DNA of 4,556 nt from a virus (taxonomy: Duplodnaviria; Heunggongvirae; Uroviricota; Caudoviricetes). Below the pieces are notes generated by a model, which did no database searches, had not been told where the DNA came from, and saw nothing but the letters and a program-made list of their open reading frames with translations. Position 1 is the first letter of the stretch, and every line of letters begins with the position of its first letter. Location: IMG/VR virus record IMGVR_UViG_2671180577_000008. One strand, written 5' to 3'. Below are positions 1 through 4,556 of the stretch, piece after piece. The position numbers were made by a program, and so were the translations under genes.

Positions 1-296
1 CCAGCTGTTTAATGCGCGGATCCGGAGCATCGTATGAATCCGGCAGCGGAAGCCCTTCACCGTAAGCCATGGCATTGGACTGCCCGGCCAGTACGATGAC
101 GTAGTACCAATCCGGCTCAGATGAAGGGCCGACCTGTGGCTCTCCTTCAATAGCCACCGCCTGCATCAGTGTGTACGGCGTAATGGCAACCGGTCCGCCG
201 TATGGCTGCCAGCCCTCTTTCAGTTTGTGTGTCAGCTTTTCCGCAAGGTCTGACGGCGACGCCGCCCTGATAACATCGTAATGTTTAATCGACATC
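1..296 (-). CDS. Prophage NanS-p-like sialate (9-O-acetyl-Neu5Ac) O-acetylesterase, N-terminal ~98 codons only (DUF1737-like N-terminus followed by the start of an SGNH/DUF303 esterase domain); the gene continues beyond position 1
   Basis: Minus-strand ATG at 296-294 preceded by GGAG 7 nt upstream. Translation: MSIKHYDVIRAASPSDLAEKLTHKLKEGWQPYGGPVAITPYTLMQAVAIEGEPQVGPSSEPDWYYVIVLAGQSNAMAYGEGLPLPDSYDAPDPRIKQL..., containing the GQSN(A/M)xG esterase block. Position ahead of the lysis module matches nanS-p paralogs of O157 prophages. Open frame runs to the window edge. Confidence 0.7.
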
Positions 297-381
297 GAAT
301 TTCTCCCGTGTAGAGGAACAGAGTTAAAAAGCCGGAAGCGGAATCAAATCACAGGATGACCATCTGCCAGTGGCTGGTCGT

Positions 382-408
382 AAAAAAAAGGCCGCGCCAT
401 GCGCAGCC
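382..408 (-). terminator. Rho-independent terminator (minus strand) between the moron cassette and the nanS-p-like gene
   Basis: Minus-strand RNA GGCUGCGC-AUG-GCGCGGCC: 8-bp GC-rich stem (one G-U pair), 3-nt loop, followed directly by U8 (plus-strand A8 at 382-389). No T-tract on the plus-strand side, so unidirectional. Confidence 0.6.
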
Positions 409-609
409 GAAAATAAAGGGATAACGATGATAGTTTGAGAAAAACAGAAATAACACTTTTGTGGCAAAGCATGGTGCCGGGTGCCTCCCGGTGAATTCAG
501 TATCAGCACCTGAATCCGCGATTACCCCATATTCCTTCTTGCTGATTGCCCCACCGCACAGGGGGATTCACCATGCAGAAGTGTTTTTAATAAACAGCAA
601 ACAAAAAAA

Positions 610-777
610 TCAAGCATTATGCAGGCTGTTTCTTTTTATCACCGGCCACAGCAATACCACAATGCCGCAGACCAGCACCCCATCCGCCAGCACCGACATG
701 ATTCTGCTGGTGAAATCCACCATCACCACCAGAAACAGCAGGAGTGCAGCCACAGTCAGGCGCAGTTTTACCGTCAC
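610..777 (-). CDS. Small hydrophobic protein (55 aa, two predicted transmembrane helices), translationally coupled to the upstream TerB-like gene; function unknown
   Basis: Not in the supplied ORF track as such. Minus-strand GTG at 777-775 overlaps the TerB-like stop (GTGA) with GGAG 8 nt upstream; stop TGA at 612-610. Translation: MTVKLRLTVAALLLFLVVMVDFTSRIMSVLADGVLVCGIVVLLWPVIKRNSLHNA. Alternative internal ATG at 723 (37 aa) has no usable SD. Start assignment is uncertain. Confidence 0.4.
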   Translation of the reverse strand: MTVKLRLTVAALLLFLVVMVDFTSRIMSVLADGVLVCGIVVLLWPVIKRNSLHNA

Positions 778-1206
778 AGGTAATTCTCCAGACGAAGACC
801 CAGAACACCGGCAATCTCTTCCAGCACCTTGCGCTCTTCCGGCTCAATTTCGCCGTCTGCCTCCGCAATGGCCACCGCCACATCCAGCACATCTTCCGCT
901 TCACGCGTATCGTGTTTCACATCCTCGATCTCACGTAACGCCGCACGACGACCAGTTTTAAAGTTCGTATCCAGCTGACCGATAATGGTTGCGCTAATCG
1001 CATTAATTTCTGACGTAAACGCGTACAGCGCAGGCTGATTACGCAGTACCTGTTCGATCTTCGCTTTCTAGGAAGCCTCACATTCACCATCTGCATAGGC
1101 CACCAGGTAGGCGGCGTTAATCACCACCTGTGCCAGATCGCGTTTTTCAAACTTTTTAATTTCCGTTGCCGCTCTGCGGGCTTTTTTTACCAAAAATACC
1201 AAACAT
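774..1206 (-). pseudogene. TerB-family (tellurite-resistance TerB-like) gene disrupted by a +1 frameshift in an A7 homopolymer (1182-1188) and an in-frame amber codon (TAG at 1070-1068); intact length would be ~143 aa
   Basis: ATG at 1206-1204 with AAGGAA SD 7 nt upstream. Frame A gives MFGIFGKKSPQSGNGN then stop (1158-1156). The +1 frame continues protein-like: ARRAATEIKKFEKRDLAQVVINAAYLVAYADGECEAS-TAG-KAKIEQVLRNQPALYAFTSEINAISATIIGQLDTNFKTGRRAALREIEDVKHDTREAEDVLDVAVAIAEADGEIEPEERKVLEEIAGVLGLRLENYL-stop(776-774). The repeated xADGExxxxE blocks and the C-terminal VAIAEADGEIEPEERKVLEEIAGVLGL are as recalled for the TerB fold. The other two frames are closed around both lesions. Confidence 0.6.
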
Positions 1207-1288
1207 CGTGACGTTCCTTTGGGTGGGTGAGCCAACGCCCGGGAGCGATCTGCCCACAGAGAAAGTCACACTGACCACTCCGTAAGCT

Positions 1289-1298
1289 CCCCCCCCCC
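1289..1298. repeat. Homopolymeric C10 tract (G10 on the coding strand of neighbouring genes), 83-92 nt upstream of the TerB-like start codon
   Basis: Direct read: ctcc cccccccc ga, ten consecutive C at 1289-1298, in the intergenic region between the argO-like tRNA and the TerB-like gene. Confidence 0.9.
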
Positions 1299-1341
1299 GA
1301 AAGGCTCTGTGGTTGGTATGCGCCGGGCGTGGCGCAGATAC

Positions 1342-1365
1342 AAAAAAGGCCCGCAAAAGCGAGCC
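1342..1365 (-). terminator. Rho-independent terminator immediately downstream of the tRNA cluster (minus strand)
   Basis: Minus-strand RNA GGCUCGC-UUUU-GCGGGCC (7-bp stem with one G-U pair, 4-nt loop) followed by U6 (plus-strand A6 at 1342-1347), 17 nt after the argO-like 3' end. Confidence 0.55.
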
Positions 1366-1381
1366 GGGAAAATAAGTGTAG

Positions 1382-1455
1382 CGCGTTGTACTGGAGTCGA
1401 ACCAGTGACCGATTGCTTAGAAGGCAATTGCTCTGTCCTGCTGAGCTAACAACGC
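1382..1455 (-). tRNA. argO: tRNA-Arg, anticodon UCU (reads AGA); prophage argO-type; CCA not encoded
   Basis: Minus-strand sequence GCGTTGT-TA-GCTC-AGCAGGACA-GAGC-A-ATTGC-CTTCTAA-GCAAT-CGGTC-ACTGG-TTCGACT-CCAGT-ACAACGC-G folds as a canonical 74-nt cloverleaf: 7-bp acceptor, 4-bp D stem, 5-bp anticodon stem, loop CU-UCU-AA, T-loop TTCGACT, discriminator G. Confidence 0.85.
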
Positions 1456-1468
1456 AGAATACCGATAA

Positions 1469-1544
1469 TGGACCACCACCGGGGACTCGAACCTCGCACA
1501 CTCAACTTAAAGGGTTGACGCTCTTTCCTGATGGCTAGTGGCGG
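1469..1544 (-). tRNA. argN: tRNA-like gene, argN-type by position and backbone but degenerate: anticodon loop CC-UUU-AA (UUU with C33), weakened D stem; possibly a pseudo-tRNA
   Basis: Minus-strand sequence CCGCCAC-TA-GCCA-TCAGGAAA-GAGC-G-TCAAC-CCTTTAA-GTTGA-GTGTG-CGAGG-TTCGAGT-CCCCG-GTGGTGG-T-CCA. Acceptor pairs 7/7 (one G-U), encoded CCA, T-loop TTCGAGT. Only 2 of 4 D-stem pairs form, one A-C mismatch in the T stem, C instead of the near-universal U33. Backbone aligns block-by-block with E. coli tRNA-Arg(UCU) as recalled (TAGC, AGAGC, CTTCTAA versus CCTTTAA, GGTTCGAAT versus GGTTCGAGT). Confidence 0.5.
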
Positions 1545-1545
1545 T

Positions 1546-1621
1546 TGGTGGCCCTTGCTGGATTTGAACCAGCGACCTGGCGATTATGAGTCGCTCGCTC
1601 TCACCACTGAGCTAAAGGGCC
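1546..1621 (-). tRNA. ileZ: tRNA-Ile2 (anticodon CAU, lysidine-type, reads AUA); prophage ileZ-type (tools often label it tRNA-Met); CCA encoded
   Basis: Minus-strand sequence GGCCCTT-TA-GCTC-AGTGGTGA-GAGC-G-AGCGA-CTCATAA-TCGCC-AGGTC-GCTGG-TTCAAAT-CCAGC-AAGGGCC-A-CCA, a 76-nt cloverleaf, near-identical in layout to E. coli ileX as recalled. Confidence 0.85.
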
Positions 1622-1630
1622 GGGCGCAGG

Positions 1631-1659
1631 ATAATAACGTTACGAAATCAATGTTGCAA
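1631..1659 (-). promoter_or_regulatory. Candidate sigma70 promoter for the tRNA cluster
   Basis: Minus strand TTGCAA (1659-1654), 17-bp spacer, TATTAT (1636-1631); predicted start ~7 nt downstream, within a few nt of the mature ileZ 5' end at 1621. Confidence 0.45.
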
Positions 1660-1722
1660 GCATACAAAAATCACCCTTATCTCCTCCACCAGCGCATTCA
1701 CCATGTCTATCCGAGATAAGTG

Positions 1723-1757
1723 ACACAACAAAACCCGCTTGTGGGCGGGTTTTGTTT
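1723..1757 (-). terminator. Intrinsic terminator hairpin (candidate tR'); T-rich on both sides so potentially bidirectional
   Basis: Plus 1730-1753 aaaacccgc-ttgtgg-gcgggtttt: GC core CCCGC/GCGGG extended by A/U pairs. The minus-strand RNA is followed by UUUUGUUGUGU, the plus-strand RNA by UUUUGUUUGCUUUU. Lies ~45-75 nt downstream of the candidate pR' start. Confidence 0.55.
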
Positions 1758-1798
1758 GCTTTTGCCATCACGTACAAAATCGGCAAAATATCAGATTT
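1723..1798 (-). ncRNA. Predicted short (~70-76 nt) terminated pR' leader transcript, analogous to lambda 6S RNA / the Stx-phage StxS sRNA; candidate only
   Basis: Defined only by the candidate pR' (-10 at 1810-1805, start near 1798) and the tR' hairpin ending near 1723. No coding capacity in the interval. Confidence 0.3.
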
Positions 1799-1804
1799 GC
1801 ATGA

Positions 1805-1833
1805 AATATATGCCTTTCAATCTACTTTTGCAA
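1805..1833 (-). promoter_or_regulatory. Candidate late promoter pR' (with associated Q-utilisation region), overlapping the 3' end of the Q gene
   Basis: Minus strand TTGCAA (1833-1828), 17-bp spacer, TATATT (1810-1805); immediately downstream of the Q stop codon (1819-1817) and upstream of the tR' hairpin, the expected lambdoid arrangement. Confidence 0.45.
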
Positions 1834-2506
1834 CACTTTGCTTTGAAAATGCCGCCTTTTGTTTTGAACGTGTTCTCATTACAAATAATAAAGCCTCACT
1901 ATCCAGTCGGTGAAAAATGTGTTTCATTGCAACCCAGTGACGAGTAAATGTTTTGGACCAGTTTTTAGTTGTCACTCCCGCCAGTAATGCCAGCTCCTGA
2001 TATTCATAACCTTCCCCACCAAAAAGTTCTGCTTTTACTGCCTGCGCCGCCAGCCAGATTAATTTTTTCAGGCGTTCCTGCGTTTTCCCAGCAATTTTTC
2101 TGGTACCGGATTGAGTATTAAATTCATTCCACGCCCACTGTGTTATCGCGATCTGATATTCCCAACAAATACTCCCGCTGTAACACCACAACAACCAGGC
2201 TTTATGATGTTCTTCAAGAGACAGAACAGCCCGCCGCCACGATGATGTCGAAAACTCAACCGGACTGACCAGAGGAATTGACGTCACCTTCGCCAGCGAT
2301 TGCTTTCCCGGGATTGGTGGATTATCCCGCGTTATCATTTTTCCAGTCACTTCATCGCGGTACCGGATTTTTTTTCGCCTGTAACGCCCTGTATCGAACA
2401 TGGCATTCTCCTGCCAGGCTTCAAGCTGACCTTTTGTTGCCCCACTCAAATCAGCGGTGGCGATAATGAGCTGCTCACGCACAAACTGTAAATAGTGGTT
2501 ATTCAT
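1817..2506 (-). CDS. Late-gene antitermination protein Q (229 aa), probably Q82/QuuQ-like; called from gene order, not from a recognised motif
   Basis: ORF track 1817..2512 (GTG); preferred start is ATG at 2506-2504, which overlaps the rusA stop as ATGA, with GGAG 5 nt upstream. Sits between rusA and pR'/tR'/tRNAs/late genes. Protein MNNHYLQFVREQLIIATADLSG... has no lambda-Q-type paired CxxC zinc finger, so it is not lambda-type Q. Confidence 0.6.
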   Translation of the reverse strand: MNNHYLQFVREQLIIATADLSGATKGQLEAWQENAMFDTGRYRRKKIRYRDEVTGKMITRDNPPIPGKQSLAKVTSIPLVSPVEFSTSSWRRAVLSLEEHHKAWLLWCYSGSICWEYQIAITQWAWNEFNTQSGTRKIAGKTQERLKKLIWLAAQAVKAELFGGEGYEYQELALLAGVTTKNWSKTFTRHWVAMKHIFHRLDSEALLFVMRTRSKQKAAFSKQSVAKVD

Positions 2507-2868
2507 GCGCACTCCAGTTCTGTGATTTTTATCCCCAGCCGCCCACCAGGAACGAGCTGACCGCGCACAATATTGATTTCATCAAACTGCTCGTCGTCTA
2601 TGAGAAGTCCGGCATGCGTCAGCACATCCAGTGGTGCTTTCAGGATATTGTCCAGGTCACGACGGCGCTTATCCGGTGGCTCTGCAATAATCTTTATCAC
2701 CAGCCTTCCGGACAGGTTTAATTTCAGCCGCTGCTGGCGAACAATTAGCGCCACATCACGGCGATAACTCTTTCCGGCTTCCGAGATGAAATACGTATTG
2801 CCATGACGTCGCCAGTAGGTATTCACCGTCGGCGGGTAAGGCAAAACAAATTCTATCCGTTCAGTCAT
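2503..2868 (-). CDS. rusA: RusA-family Holliday-junction resolvase (121 aa)
   Basis: Translation MTERIEFVLPYPPTVNTYWRRHGNTYFISEAGKSYRRDVALIV...AEPPDKRRRDLDNILKAPLDVLTHAGLLIDDEQFDEINIVRGQLVPGGRLGIKITELE carries the RusA signature blocks (LPxPPSxN, DRRRRDLDN, DDxQ) as recalled from DLP12 RusA. ATG at 2868 abuts the upstream stop (TGAATG). Confidence 0.85.
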   Translation of the reverse strand: MTERIEFVLPYPPTVNTYWRRHGNTYFISEAGKSYRRDVALIVRQQRLKLNLSGRLVIKIIAEPPDKRRRDLDNILKAPLDVLTHAGLLIDDEQFDEINIVRGQLVPGGRLGIKITELECA

Positions 2869-3924
2869 TCATGCTTTCCACTTCAGGACACCCGAATTTC
2901 TCGCGTGCATTAAAAAACGAATCAGCAACAACAGCTGGCTGCCGTGTTTTTCTTCAAAATCTTTTACCCCAGCGTGCAGTTCGTTATGACATTTACGGCA
3001 CAGCGGAATAACAAACAAATCATCAGCCTTTGTTCCCATCCCTCCCAGTCCATGACCAATGATGTGATGCGGATCATCTGCCTGATTACCGCACGTCATG
3101 CATTTCTGCGTTTTTACCCAGCGCGTGTATACAGGCATCTCTTCCCGTTGTGGTTTCTGGCGCTGGAGATACTGAGCCGGTGACTCCGGATCAACGGCAA
3201 TGCTGACCACCGTCTTTTCCTGTGGCGGGTTTTGCTGGTGGGCGTGAGGCAGCGGCGCAAGATTTTTTGTGCGCTGCTTCAGTATGATGGTGGCGGTCTG
3301 CTCTCCCGGTACGATGTCGCTTTCACGGTACATTGAGCGGATTTTTTCCGCACGCAACCCCAGCGAACGACGTAATACCGCTTCCGGTAGCGCGTCCGCC
3401 ACCTGATTGCGGACCGCCCACCAGGATAATTCAGCCAGAGATAATTCACGCTCCTGCGTACCGCTTATTGCGTGACCGATGACGTCAATCATCCATGCTG
3501 ACAGGTTTTGATGAGCAAGTTGCTCGAGTGATTCGGATGTCTGGTCACGCAGCTGGTTGTCGCAGTGCCAGCACAACACCATTGCGCCGGTACCATAACG
3601 GTGAATAACGGTTTCACTGTGATGATAGTCACCATGAGGCCACTGGCAGGATTTGACATGACGCAACAGCCAGTCAGACAGTGCACCAGCGCCACCAACA
3701 GCACGAATCACACGCTCATTGCTGAAAAACGGCAGTAATGATTTATCCTCCGCCAGCGGCTGGCGAACGGCAGGGACGATGCCGGACGGCAGACCGCGCA
3801 TGCTTTTCGGTTCCGGCTCCACAAGCACTCGAGGGTTATGGAATACCTGCATGGATTCACGGCCTGGTTTAAGGACCACCAACCCAAGTTCCGGTACCGG
3901 AACAGGTCGAAGTAATACCCGCAC
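2869..3924 (-). CDS. DUF968 / YdfU-family prophage protein (351 aa) with two Cys/His-rich HNH-like (putative nuclease/zinc-binding) motifs
   Basis: Long minus-strand ORF. GTG start at 3924 with GGAGG SD 4 nt upstream, 1 nt after the upstream TAA; alternative ATG at 3852. Motifs: CQWPHGDYHHSETVIHRYGTGAMVLCWHCDNQL and C-terminal CMTCGNQADDPHHIIGHGLGGMGTKADDLFVIPLCRKCHNELH. Stop TGA at 2871-2869 directly abuts the rusA ATG. Confidence 0.65.
   Translation of the reverse strand: MRVLLRPVPVPELGLVVLKPGRESMQVFHNPRVLVEPEPKSMRGLPSGIVPAVRQPLAEDKSLLPFFSNERVIRAVGGAGALSDWLLRHVKSCQWPHGDYHHSETVIHRYGTGAMVLCWHCDNQLRDQTSESLEQLAHQNLSAWMIDVIGHAISGTQERELSLAELSWWAVRNQVADALPEAVLRRSLGLRAEKIRSMYRESDIVPGEQTATIILKQRTKNLAPLPHAHQQNPPQEKTVVSIAVDPESPAQYLQRQKPQREEMPVYTRWVKTQKCMTCGNQADDPHHIIGHGLGGMGTKADDLFVIPLCRKCHNELHAGVKDFEEKHGSQLLLLIRFLMHARNSGVLKWKA
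3888..3903. repeat. Perfect 16-bp palindrome GTTCCGGTACCGGAAC inside the 5' end of the DUF968 gene (codons ~8-13)
   Basis: Direct read; the sequence equals its own reverse complement (CCGG-flanked GGTACC core) and lies 21-36 nt downstream of the GTG start. Confidence 0.9.
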
Positions 3925-3925
3925 G

Positions 3926-4204
3926 TTACCTCCAGATGCGTTGCTGGAATGTGCGGGACGGACGCGGTGGGCGCTCGGAGTACGGCAGCCTGACGTAGAT
4001 TATCCAGTGACGATAATCGAGGCTGAGGGCTTTCCTAAACTCATACCCACGTCTGCGGTAGTTCTGAATCAGCCATTCGGCCTGTTCTTCAGTGCATGGG
4101 GCGTGCCGGAACCAGTCAGATTTGAATGCATGAGAACGCCGCCCGTGCCTGCTGGCAAAGACGGCTGAATTATCAGAATTGTGTAGTCTGGAATTTTGCG
4201 CCAT
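3926..4204 (-). CDS. Hypothetical prophage nin-region protein (92 aa), basic and Arg/Trp-rich
   Basis: ATG at 4204 with GGAGA SD ~6 nt upstream; stop TAA at 3928-3926 one nt before the DUF968 GTG (coupled). Translation MAQNSRLHNSDNSAVFASRHGRRSHAFKSDWFRHAPCTEEQAEWLIQNYRRRGYEFRKALSLDYRHWIIYVRLPYSERPPRPSRTFQQRIWR. No family recognised. Confidence 0.5.
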   Translation of the reverse strand: MAQNSRLHNSDNSAVFASRHGRRSHAFKSDWFRHAPCTEEQAEWLIQNYRRRGYEFRKALSLDYRHWIIYVRLPYSERPPRPSRTFQQRIWR

Positions 4205-4273
4205 CGGCTTTCTCCGGTGGCACAGTGTTACTCAACAGGGGTTCAGCCCTGCGCTGAATTGTAGATGAATTCA

Positions 4274-4405
4274 CTAATCTTCAAAAGCAGAAAAACCAGC
4301 CTTAATCCCAGCTTCTTTCAGAGACGGCAACGATGTGACAAATTCATTTGCACGCAAAATAAAACCATCCGTCACAAGCCCATCCACAAAATGAATTAAC
4401 GCAGC
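4274..4405 (-). pseudogene. Possible 3' remnant (last 43 codons) of a prophage gene truncated by the IS629-like insertion
   Basis: Minus-strand frame open from the IS boundary (4405) to TAG at 4276-4274: AALIHFVDGLVTDGFILRANEFVTSLPSLKEAGIKAGFSAFED. The same frame continues into IS sequence only as unrelated residues. No start codon or SD in the segment; it could also be noncoding. Confidence 0.3.
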
Positions 4406-4556
4406 TGAACCGCCCCGGGAATCCTGGAGACTAAACTTCCTGAGAAAGAGGTAAACAGGATGACTAAAAATACTCGTTTTTCCCCTGAAGTCCGTCAACG
4501 GGCAGTCCGTATGGTTCTGGAAAGTCAGGGCGAATATGACTCACAATGGGCGACAA
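4406..4556 (+). mobile_element. IS629-like (IS3 family; IS629/IS1203) insertion sequence, left end only; element continues beyond the window
   Basis: Terminal TGAACCGCCCCGGGAATCCTGGAGACTAAACTTCC... begins at 4406 (IS3-family TG terminus) and is followed by the orfA start; matches the IS629 left end as recalled. Confidence 0.75.
4460..4556 (+). CDS. IS3-family transposase OrfA (IS629 orfA), N-terminal 32 codons; 3' partial
   Basis: ATG at 4460 with AGAGG/CAGGA SD upstream. Translation [32 protein letters not shown], the helix-turn-helix N-terminus recalled for IS629/IS1203 OrfA. Open to the window end. Confidence 0.8.

Follow-up and report, generated by a model that had tools for sequence, protein, structure and literature searches.

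Introduction

Experiments on the Qin prophage of E. coli K-12 have established that its Rem protein acts as an antirepressor against DicA, a repressor of the CI type (Ragunathan et al. 2023, PMC10448788). Ectopic rem raised dicBp expression 165-fold, and filamentation under these conditions was dependent on DicB and DicF; in a K-12 rem deletion, DicF accumulation and spontaneous dicBp, stationary-phase, urea and heat induction were all unaltered (PMC10448788). Among the related PPompW prophages, lysis genes are deleted, and all PPompWs of O145:H28 that were examined have been reported as defective through lesions other than the one described here (PMC8112680).

The whole stretch of DNA analysed here, 4,556 nt in length and referred to as the window, carries the 3' half of a rem gene of this type that is joined directly to the left end of IS629. 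The features needed below, written in window coordinates, are as follows.

1817..2512, minus strand: Q, late-gene antiterminator (from the ORF list; annotated Q in relatives that are 99.9-100% identical)
2503..2868, minus strand: rusA, Holliday-junction resolvase (NCBIfam PRK09786 RusA, E=1.8e-24; so annotated in relatives)
2869..3924, minus strand: ydfU-type DUF968/HNH-like protein, 351 aa (Pfam DUF968, E=1.6e-63)
3926..4204, minus strand: 92-aa ORF, function unassigned, phrog_1212; first gene after rem, 69 nt beyond the rem stop codon; 'hypothetical protein' in all relatives
4274..4405, minus strand: 3' remnant of rem, antirepressor gene (stop codon TAG and codons 43-85, AALIHFVDGL...AFED); own start codon and promoter absent
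4403..4405, no strand: predicted left copy of the target-site duplication (TSD), AGC (CAGC if 4 bp), for a simple insertion only; its partner would lie past the right IS end, outside the window
4406..4556, plus strand: left end of IS629 (IS3 family), IRL/orfA-proximal, clipped by the window edge; 151/151 vs IS629 of LC567828

Identity of the truncated gene

The minus-strand TAG (4274-4276) closes a frame of 43 sense codons (4277-4405). Over 3900-4405 the window is 100% identical to ten records of IS-free PPompW prophages of STEC O145:H28, in which the same frame is an intact gene of 85 codons, annotated rem, and the break in the window lies precisely at the boundary of codon 42 (G) and codon 43 (A). 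The full-length 85-aa Rem of these relatives is 72% identical to K-12 Qin Rem (b1561); the 43-aa remnant is 80% identical to residues 40-80 of K-12 Rem over 41 aa (BLASTP, E=1e-21) and matches phrog_340 (E=1e-10), and a frame left open for 43 codons by chance was rejected on these two matches. No model matched Rem in the copies of Pfam and NCBIfam used for the profile searches; a recorded 37-aa product, the same as window 4277-4387 except for a GTG start read as Met, carries PF27490:Rem. Proteins of the Rem family are about 83-86 aa long and the window keeps codons 43-85 only, so that the ORF is incomplete. Homologues of Rem are present in the isolated temperate phages mEp460_ev081, HannyBb and PhiR42_1.

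The gene order hok - rem - small ORF - ydfU - (rusA) - Q is conserved; its downstream half lies in the window and the hok side was seen in relatives only. Q, rusA and ydfU are co-oriented with rem in the window, and O and P lie upstream in relatives. On homology and gene order the truncated gene is thus rem, which by its kinship would encode a DicA antirepressor. The preliminary description had proposed a truncated gene in the nin region and had not recognised which gene it was. Both proposals are borne out: the site falls in the P-to-Q (nin-equivalent) interval, upstream of the 92-aa ORF, DUF968/ydfU, rusA and Q in phage transcription; the fragment has clear homologues; and comparison with the IS-free relatives places the junction inside the ORF, not between genes.

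The junction destroys rem, since the C-terminal 43 of 85 codons alone remain, with neither start codon nor promoter. The frame of the remnant stays open for 31 codons further into IS629, to a TTG at 4498, which gives a 74-aa fusion product; this frame has neither an ATG nor an obvious Shine-Dalgarno sequence, and the product was absent from the protein and contig collections. Exact-product look-ups of the 74-aa and 33-aa ORF variants, and of the rem N-terminal fragments predicted for 3-, 4- and 5-bp TSDs, gave no record. Inactivation of rem without an IS was seen in one contig (L008 9640-10120; GCA_000187305.3, AETY01000157.1), where a frameshift leaves a 37-aa product that matches the C-terminal part found in the window.

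The IS629 end

The terminus of IS629 begins exactly at 4406 (TGAACCGCCCCGGGAATCC...), and the window from this position reads TGAACCGCCCCGGGAATCCTGGAGAC... The segment 4406-4556 matched, at 151/151 positions, the IRL/orfA end of the annotated IS629 copy of LC567828 (PPompW_EH2201), 151 of 1310 bp being visible; the IS1203-type copy of O55:H7 DEC5E differs from the IS part of the window at 6 positions (ca. 96% identity). The terminal inverted repeat starts with TGAACCGCCCCGGG, is about 25 bp long and imperfect (IRL vs IRR, 23/25 positions match), and IRL corresponds to window 4406-4430, the same as the annotated IRL. The ATG of orfA is located at 4460, all 32 visible codons are the same as those of the annotated OrfA, and the window edge precedes the frameshift site and orfB. 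The initial assignment of the insertion to IS629 is confirmed. Elements of the IS629 family are laid out as orfA (HTH), a programmed -1 frameshift and orfB (DDE transposase). In the window the transposase genes face away from the phage genes, i.e., against phage rightward transcription. The right edge of the window (4556) lies 151 nt inside IS629 and resembles the end of a short-read contig within a multicopy repeat; the absence of the right IS end from the window may be due to this.

The nearest IS-free backbone was that of UTME-6 (99.9% over window 1-4405); the best matches, at 99.8-99.9%, were non-O157, those with a serotype being O111:H8, and all of these genomes are rich in copies of the IS629 family. 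An O157:H7 or Shigella background had been suggested from the presence of IS629; with non-O157 relatives that carry many IS copies, and with a flank 100% identical to O145:H28 PPompW, this is too narrow. ISEc20 (IS110 family), which stands beside the tRNA cluster in O145:H28 PPompW and in strain EPSSH018 (L001 1-1398), is absent near window ~1300, and the prophage of the window is therefore not from the O145:H28 PPompW/EPSSH018 sub-lineage.

Consequences for the DicA switch

The junction very probably represents IRL of IS629 joined at codon 42/43 of rem in a Qin/PPompW-type lambdoid prophage, with loss of Rem-dependent derepression. The regulatory module of UTME-6, the 99.9% relative over 1-4405, includes a repressor of 135 aa that shares 63% identity with DicA, a cro-like gene with a frameshift, YdaT, ydfC, dicB, hokD and paa; the gene order is hokD - rem - 92-aa ORF - ydfU - rusA - Q. 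Antirepressor activity is established for K-12 Rem only and would be transferred by analogy to the allele of the window type (72% identical); likewise, a DicA-like repressor and early genes on which Rem could act are present in the relatives and would have to be retained in the prophage of the window as well.

By this analogy the prophage would no longer be able to make Rem, the protein that relieves DicA repression in K-12 Qin; Rem-dependent derepression of the early operons, i.e., of dicB/dicF-type toxic genes, of replication genes and, further on, of Q, would be lost, and the element would be confined more strictly to repression as a cryptic prophage. With the gene identified as the antirepressor gene rem, the direct consequence concerns the lysogeny switch and not polarity alone. 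A secondary effect, still hypothetical, may be that the insertion, or a deletion linked with it, separates the 92-aa ORF-ydfU-rusA-Q block from its normal promoter; this could be pR, acting with antitermination, or a promoter-like sequence that immediately precedes rem.

The K-12 rem deletion left the forms of induction named in the Introduction unchanged, so the loss of Rem may lack a phenotype under most conditions. The relatives are already badly degraded, as by the frameshift in cro of UTME-6, and the insertion may therefore simply be neutral decay. Gifsy-type antirepressor genes have a LexA box upstream; none was found upstream of rem in the IS-free relatives.

What lies beyond the IS

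For a simple insertion the two arms of the target would be related as in the uninterrupted ...acgcagc/tccact... of the IS-free relatives; with the 3-4 bp duplications made by IS629 (PMC3271280), the product is predicted to read ...GCAGC-IS629-AGCTCCACTC... The junction 4405/4406 was absent from 5,426 complete E. coli genomes, GTDB representatives, IMG/VR, JGI metagenomes and phage records, and the expected right junction had no match in IMG/VR. That the 5' half of rem stands just beyond the IS is unproven, and related junctions, taken as a guide, split about evenly between insertion and deletion joint.

There is nearly an even chance that the junction is the endpoint of an IS629-associated deletion or rearrangement, in which case unrelated prophage DNA such as exo or DUF977 would follow the IS, the prophage would have lost the 5' half of rem together with hok, paa, the genes for replication and the immunity region, and Q would be physically cut from every early promoter. 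Junctions with the same orientation as that of the window (IRL beside the 3' part of rem) pass into truncated exo/DUF977 with no TSD in E2 (+15), O121:H19 (+17) and O145:H28 (+75; positions in nt, the junction of the window being 0); 2014C-4423 (+21, opposite orientation) is also joined to exo, likewise with no TSD, and in S1-CAM-02-A (+17) the IS at the rem junction is truncated. An IS joined to exo/DUF977 without a TSD means that the whole early region has been deleted. The five related junctions of the window's orientation comprise three deletion joints, one truncated IS and one simple insertion. A matching TSD of 3-4 bp was present at 21/47 IS629 sites in O157 genomes (PMC3271280), and IS629 together with the IS-excision enhancer yields adjacent deletions of from a few nucleotides to >40 kb (PMC9943667). 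Against a deletion stand the five related events that are clean insertions and the closest backbone relatives (UTME-6 and the O111:H8 genomes), which retain the entire early region; the window itself gives no view past the IS.

Essentially the same rem-to-exo joint was observed in O121 RM8352 (L011 3024-4333; gcaaac/IS/taccgctgaag) and in 2014C-4423 (L015 2328-3637; gcaaacagat/IS/gctgaag), with opposite IS orientations and with both flanks shifted by 4 nt; the IS has seemingly been re-inserted or inverted in place.

Simple transposition with polarity as the main effect is rather unlikely. It would require a complete 1310-bp IS629 inside rem, flanked by a 3-bp AGC duplication and directly followed by the 5' half of the gene; early transcription would stop in the IS, no Q would be made and late development would not take place. 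Simple insertions in rem or its leader are known from EH2201/UTME-3 (TSD TTA), Z1323HEC0108 (ATG) and DEC5E (GTT), and those of 28RC1 and NE1092-2 are also simple; among the five related junctions of the window's orientation, only one is of this kind.

The arrangement of the genes is favourable to polarity: Q overlaps or abuts rusA, so that the 92-aa ORF, ydfU, rusA and Q form one tight block, with the IS upstream of it. No terminator-like site was found between rem and the 92-aa ORF; no outward promoter from IRL toward the phage genes was detected, and close to the junction no internal promoter was convincing. Phage transcription would read IS629 on the strand that is antisense to the transposase genes and probably untranslated; this strand contains 29.7% C vs 24.2% G, with many windows in which C exceeds G, which is compatible with Rho loading on a heuristic basis only. 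Against this, the terminator scan of IS629 gave one weak hairpin on the strand that the phage would transcribe, the total on both strands (2 found vs 1.6 expected in shuffles) being at chance level.

A further argument comes from the region upstream of rem in the IS-free relatives, where hok and rem are separated by a strong intrinsic terminator (3' end of hok, AACCCGCTTCGGCGGGTT with a T-run) that precedes the start codon of rem by about 135 nt. Between this terminator and rem, about 83 nt before the ATG, there is a promoter-like TTGAAG-18-TAGAAT.

L001 4784-4767 and 4744-4715, minus strand: hok terminator and promoter-like site, respectively (equivalent to window ~4683-4614 were no IS present)

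The spacer of the TTGAAG-18-TAGAAT site holds an inverted repeat, TTCCGG-N6-CCGGAA, and the site may, by its sequence, be a regulated promoter of rem itself. With a strong terminator already upstream of rem, a transcript from pR could get as far as Q only if it were resistant to termination in the first place. Adhya, Gottesman and de Crombrugghe are said to have found in 1974 that antiterminated lambda transcription reads through IS-induced polarity; if the pR transcripts are antiterminated, they would override the polarity of the IS in the same way. If, instead, the local promoter feeds the rem-to-Q block, any interruption of rem severs the block. Defects of other origin in all the examined O145:H28 PPompWs (see Introduction) also speak against polarity as the main effect. 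Uncoupling of Q from early transcription, as put forward in the preliminary description, is plausible and has no computed support.

An assembly artefact, i.e., a short-read contig wrongly extended into multicopy IS629 with rem intact in the real genome, would fit a window that stops exactly 151 nt into a repeat with up to about 40 copies per genome and a junction found in no other record among the collections searched, yet it is hardly credible, given that the break is placed precisely at the canonical IS629 terminus (TG...), as made by transposition and unlike a random mis-join, that finished genomes contain nearly identical junctions at distances of 7 to 25 nt, and that a contig ending shortly inside an IS would be the normal sign of a genuine insertion in short-read assemblies.

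Cluster of IS ends in rem

Positions of IS ends were counted from the conserved TTAACGCAGC (window 4396-4405; matching sites in L002-L007 and L011-L016), the junction of the window being set to 0. In the finished E. coli genomes and the window, IS629/IS1203 ends were mapped to ten different positions within rem or its leader: -7, 0, +15, +17, +21, +25, +75, +84, +141 and +164 nt; the junction of the window prompted the search for the cluster, yet it is counted as one of the ten. Six of these positions share a stretch of 33 nt; the ends occur in both IS orientations and in two rem alleles, and position +17 was hit in two lineages with different IS variants. The lineages include O157, O55, O145 and O121 as well as poultry and human isolates (commensals). 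Independence of the events was judged from the junction sequences alone.

A census of junctions was made with chimeric queries, and genomes with at least 80% coverage were counted; the ydfU and Q controls were neighbouring segments of equal size.

rem-side flank with IRL: 48/5,426 genomes
rem-side flank with IRR: 11 genomes
ydfU interior with IRL (control): 0 genomes
Q interior with IRL (control): 3 genomes (1-2 events)

The alleles of Q are more variable than those of rem, and the Q control therefore samples fewer prophages. Two explanations of the cluster were tried and rejected: a target sequence in rem resembling the inverted repeat, which might attract IS629, gave a best match of 10-11/20 only, and base composition distinguishes rem (45-47% GC) from ydfU (52-58%), but Q is equally AT-rich without comparable events.

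It is possible, if doubtful, that rem and its leader form a previously unreported hot spot for insertion of the IS629/IS1203 family and for IS-bounded deletions; no publication that links IS629 with rem or with antirepressors was found in the literature searched. Repeated hits in rem suggest either a target preference of IS629 or recurrent loss of the antirepressor during domestication of the prophage. If the cluster is real, it would reflect a strong local target preference of IS629 that is still undescribed, or convergent selection for removal of the antirepressor; under selection, Qin/PPompW-type prophages that carry paa, nleG and other cargo would be locked into a harmless cryptic state. 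The ends are grouped in the middle of the gene and not spread along the ORF, which favours local target preference over selection for a knock-out.

Other features of the window

Three tRNA genes are situated just downstream of Q (1381-1621, minus strand; Arg-tct, Lys-ttt and Met-cat by ARAGORN). The calls differ between sources: PGAP gives Arg and Ile only in the relatives, and GenBank phage records give Arg, Lys and Met. The group is the tRNA cluster typical of Stx-type lambdoid phages. Directly after the stop codon of Q there is a promoter-like TTGCAA-17-TATATT (1833-1805, minus strand), followed by a GC-rich hairpin with a 13-bp stem (1727-1756) and T-runs on both strands; such an arrangement would be expected of the late promoter and terminator pR'/tR', on which Q acts.

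A gene of the TerB family (774-1202, minus strand) contains an in-frame stop (...GECEAS*KAKIE...) and is thus a pseudogene; a DUF3927 ORF (610-777) comes next. Both are located downstream of Q and of the tRNA genes, in the position of stx in Stx phages. The N-terminus of an esterase of NanS-p/SASA type (...VLAGQSNAMAYGEG...; 2-295, minus strand) extends past the window's left edge; UTME-6 has a truncated copy of this esterase gene and lacks most late genes.

Significance

The lesion is an ordinary IS knock-out and, taken alone, routine decay of a prophage of EHEC/EPEC type. As judged from its sequence, it is a new allele of rem whose type of lesion is already known, LC567828 having the annotation 'rem ... 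interrupted by IS629' at a site 7 bp away. What is gained is a function for the 43-codon frame, a remnant of an antirepressor: the lesion bears on the inducibility of the prophage and on the expression of toxic genes of dicB/dicF type, not merely on polarity. IS629 sites serve in strain typing; the exact junction was in none of the searched collections and may therefore serve as a marker of a strain or lineage. Wider interest is confined to the possible hot spot in rem.

Comparison with known systems

The classical polar insertions of IS1 and IS2 in gal and in the early operons of lambda resemble the window in that an IS lies within a transcription unit, ahead of late-regulatory genes that are essential. 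For IS629 of the window polarity is hypothetical: the scan gave no intrinsic terminator above chance, and antiterminated phage transcription reportedly overrides IS polarity.

The deletions of the O145:H28, O121:H19 and E2 lineages also have IRL joined to the 3' part of rem, in the same orientation and 15-75 nt from the site in the window. They differ from what is visible in the window by a far IS end that abuts exo/DUF977, by the lack of a TSD and by deletion of the genes from hok to the N/cI equivalents.

In PPompW_EH2201 (LC567828) and E. coli UTME-3, rem is interrupted by IS629 as in the window, with a flank 100% identical, an IS identical at 151/151 positions and a site 7 bp away. There, however, the IS is reversed (IRR beside the 3' part of rem), the insertion point lies 7 bp closer to the 3' end of the gene, and the two IS ends can be seen, with a TTA duplication; the EH2201/UTME-3 insertion is an event independent of that in the window.

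K-12 Qin (Rem, b1561) is alike in the protein (72% for the full-length relative, 80% for the fragment), in the location of the gene between hokD and ydfU/Q and in the DicA/DicC/dicB module, which is found in the IS-free relatives. It differs in that its rem is intact, in that it lacks four residues (QSQQ) inserted in the PPompW allele, and in that the repressor of the relatives is 63% identical to DicA.
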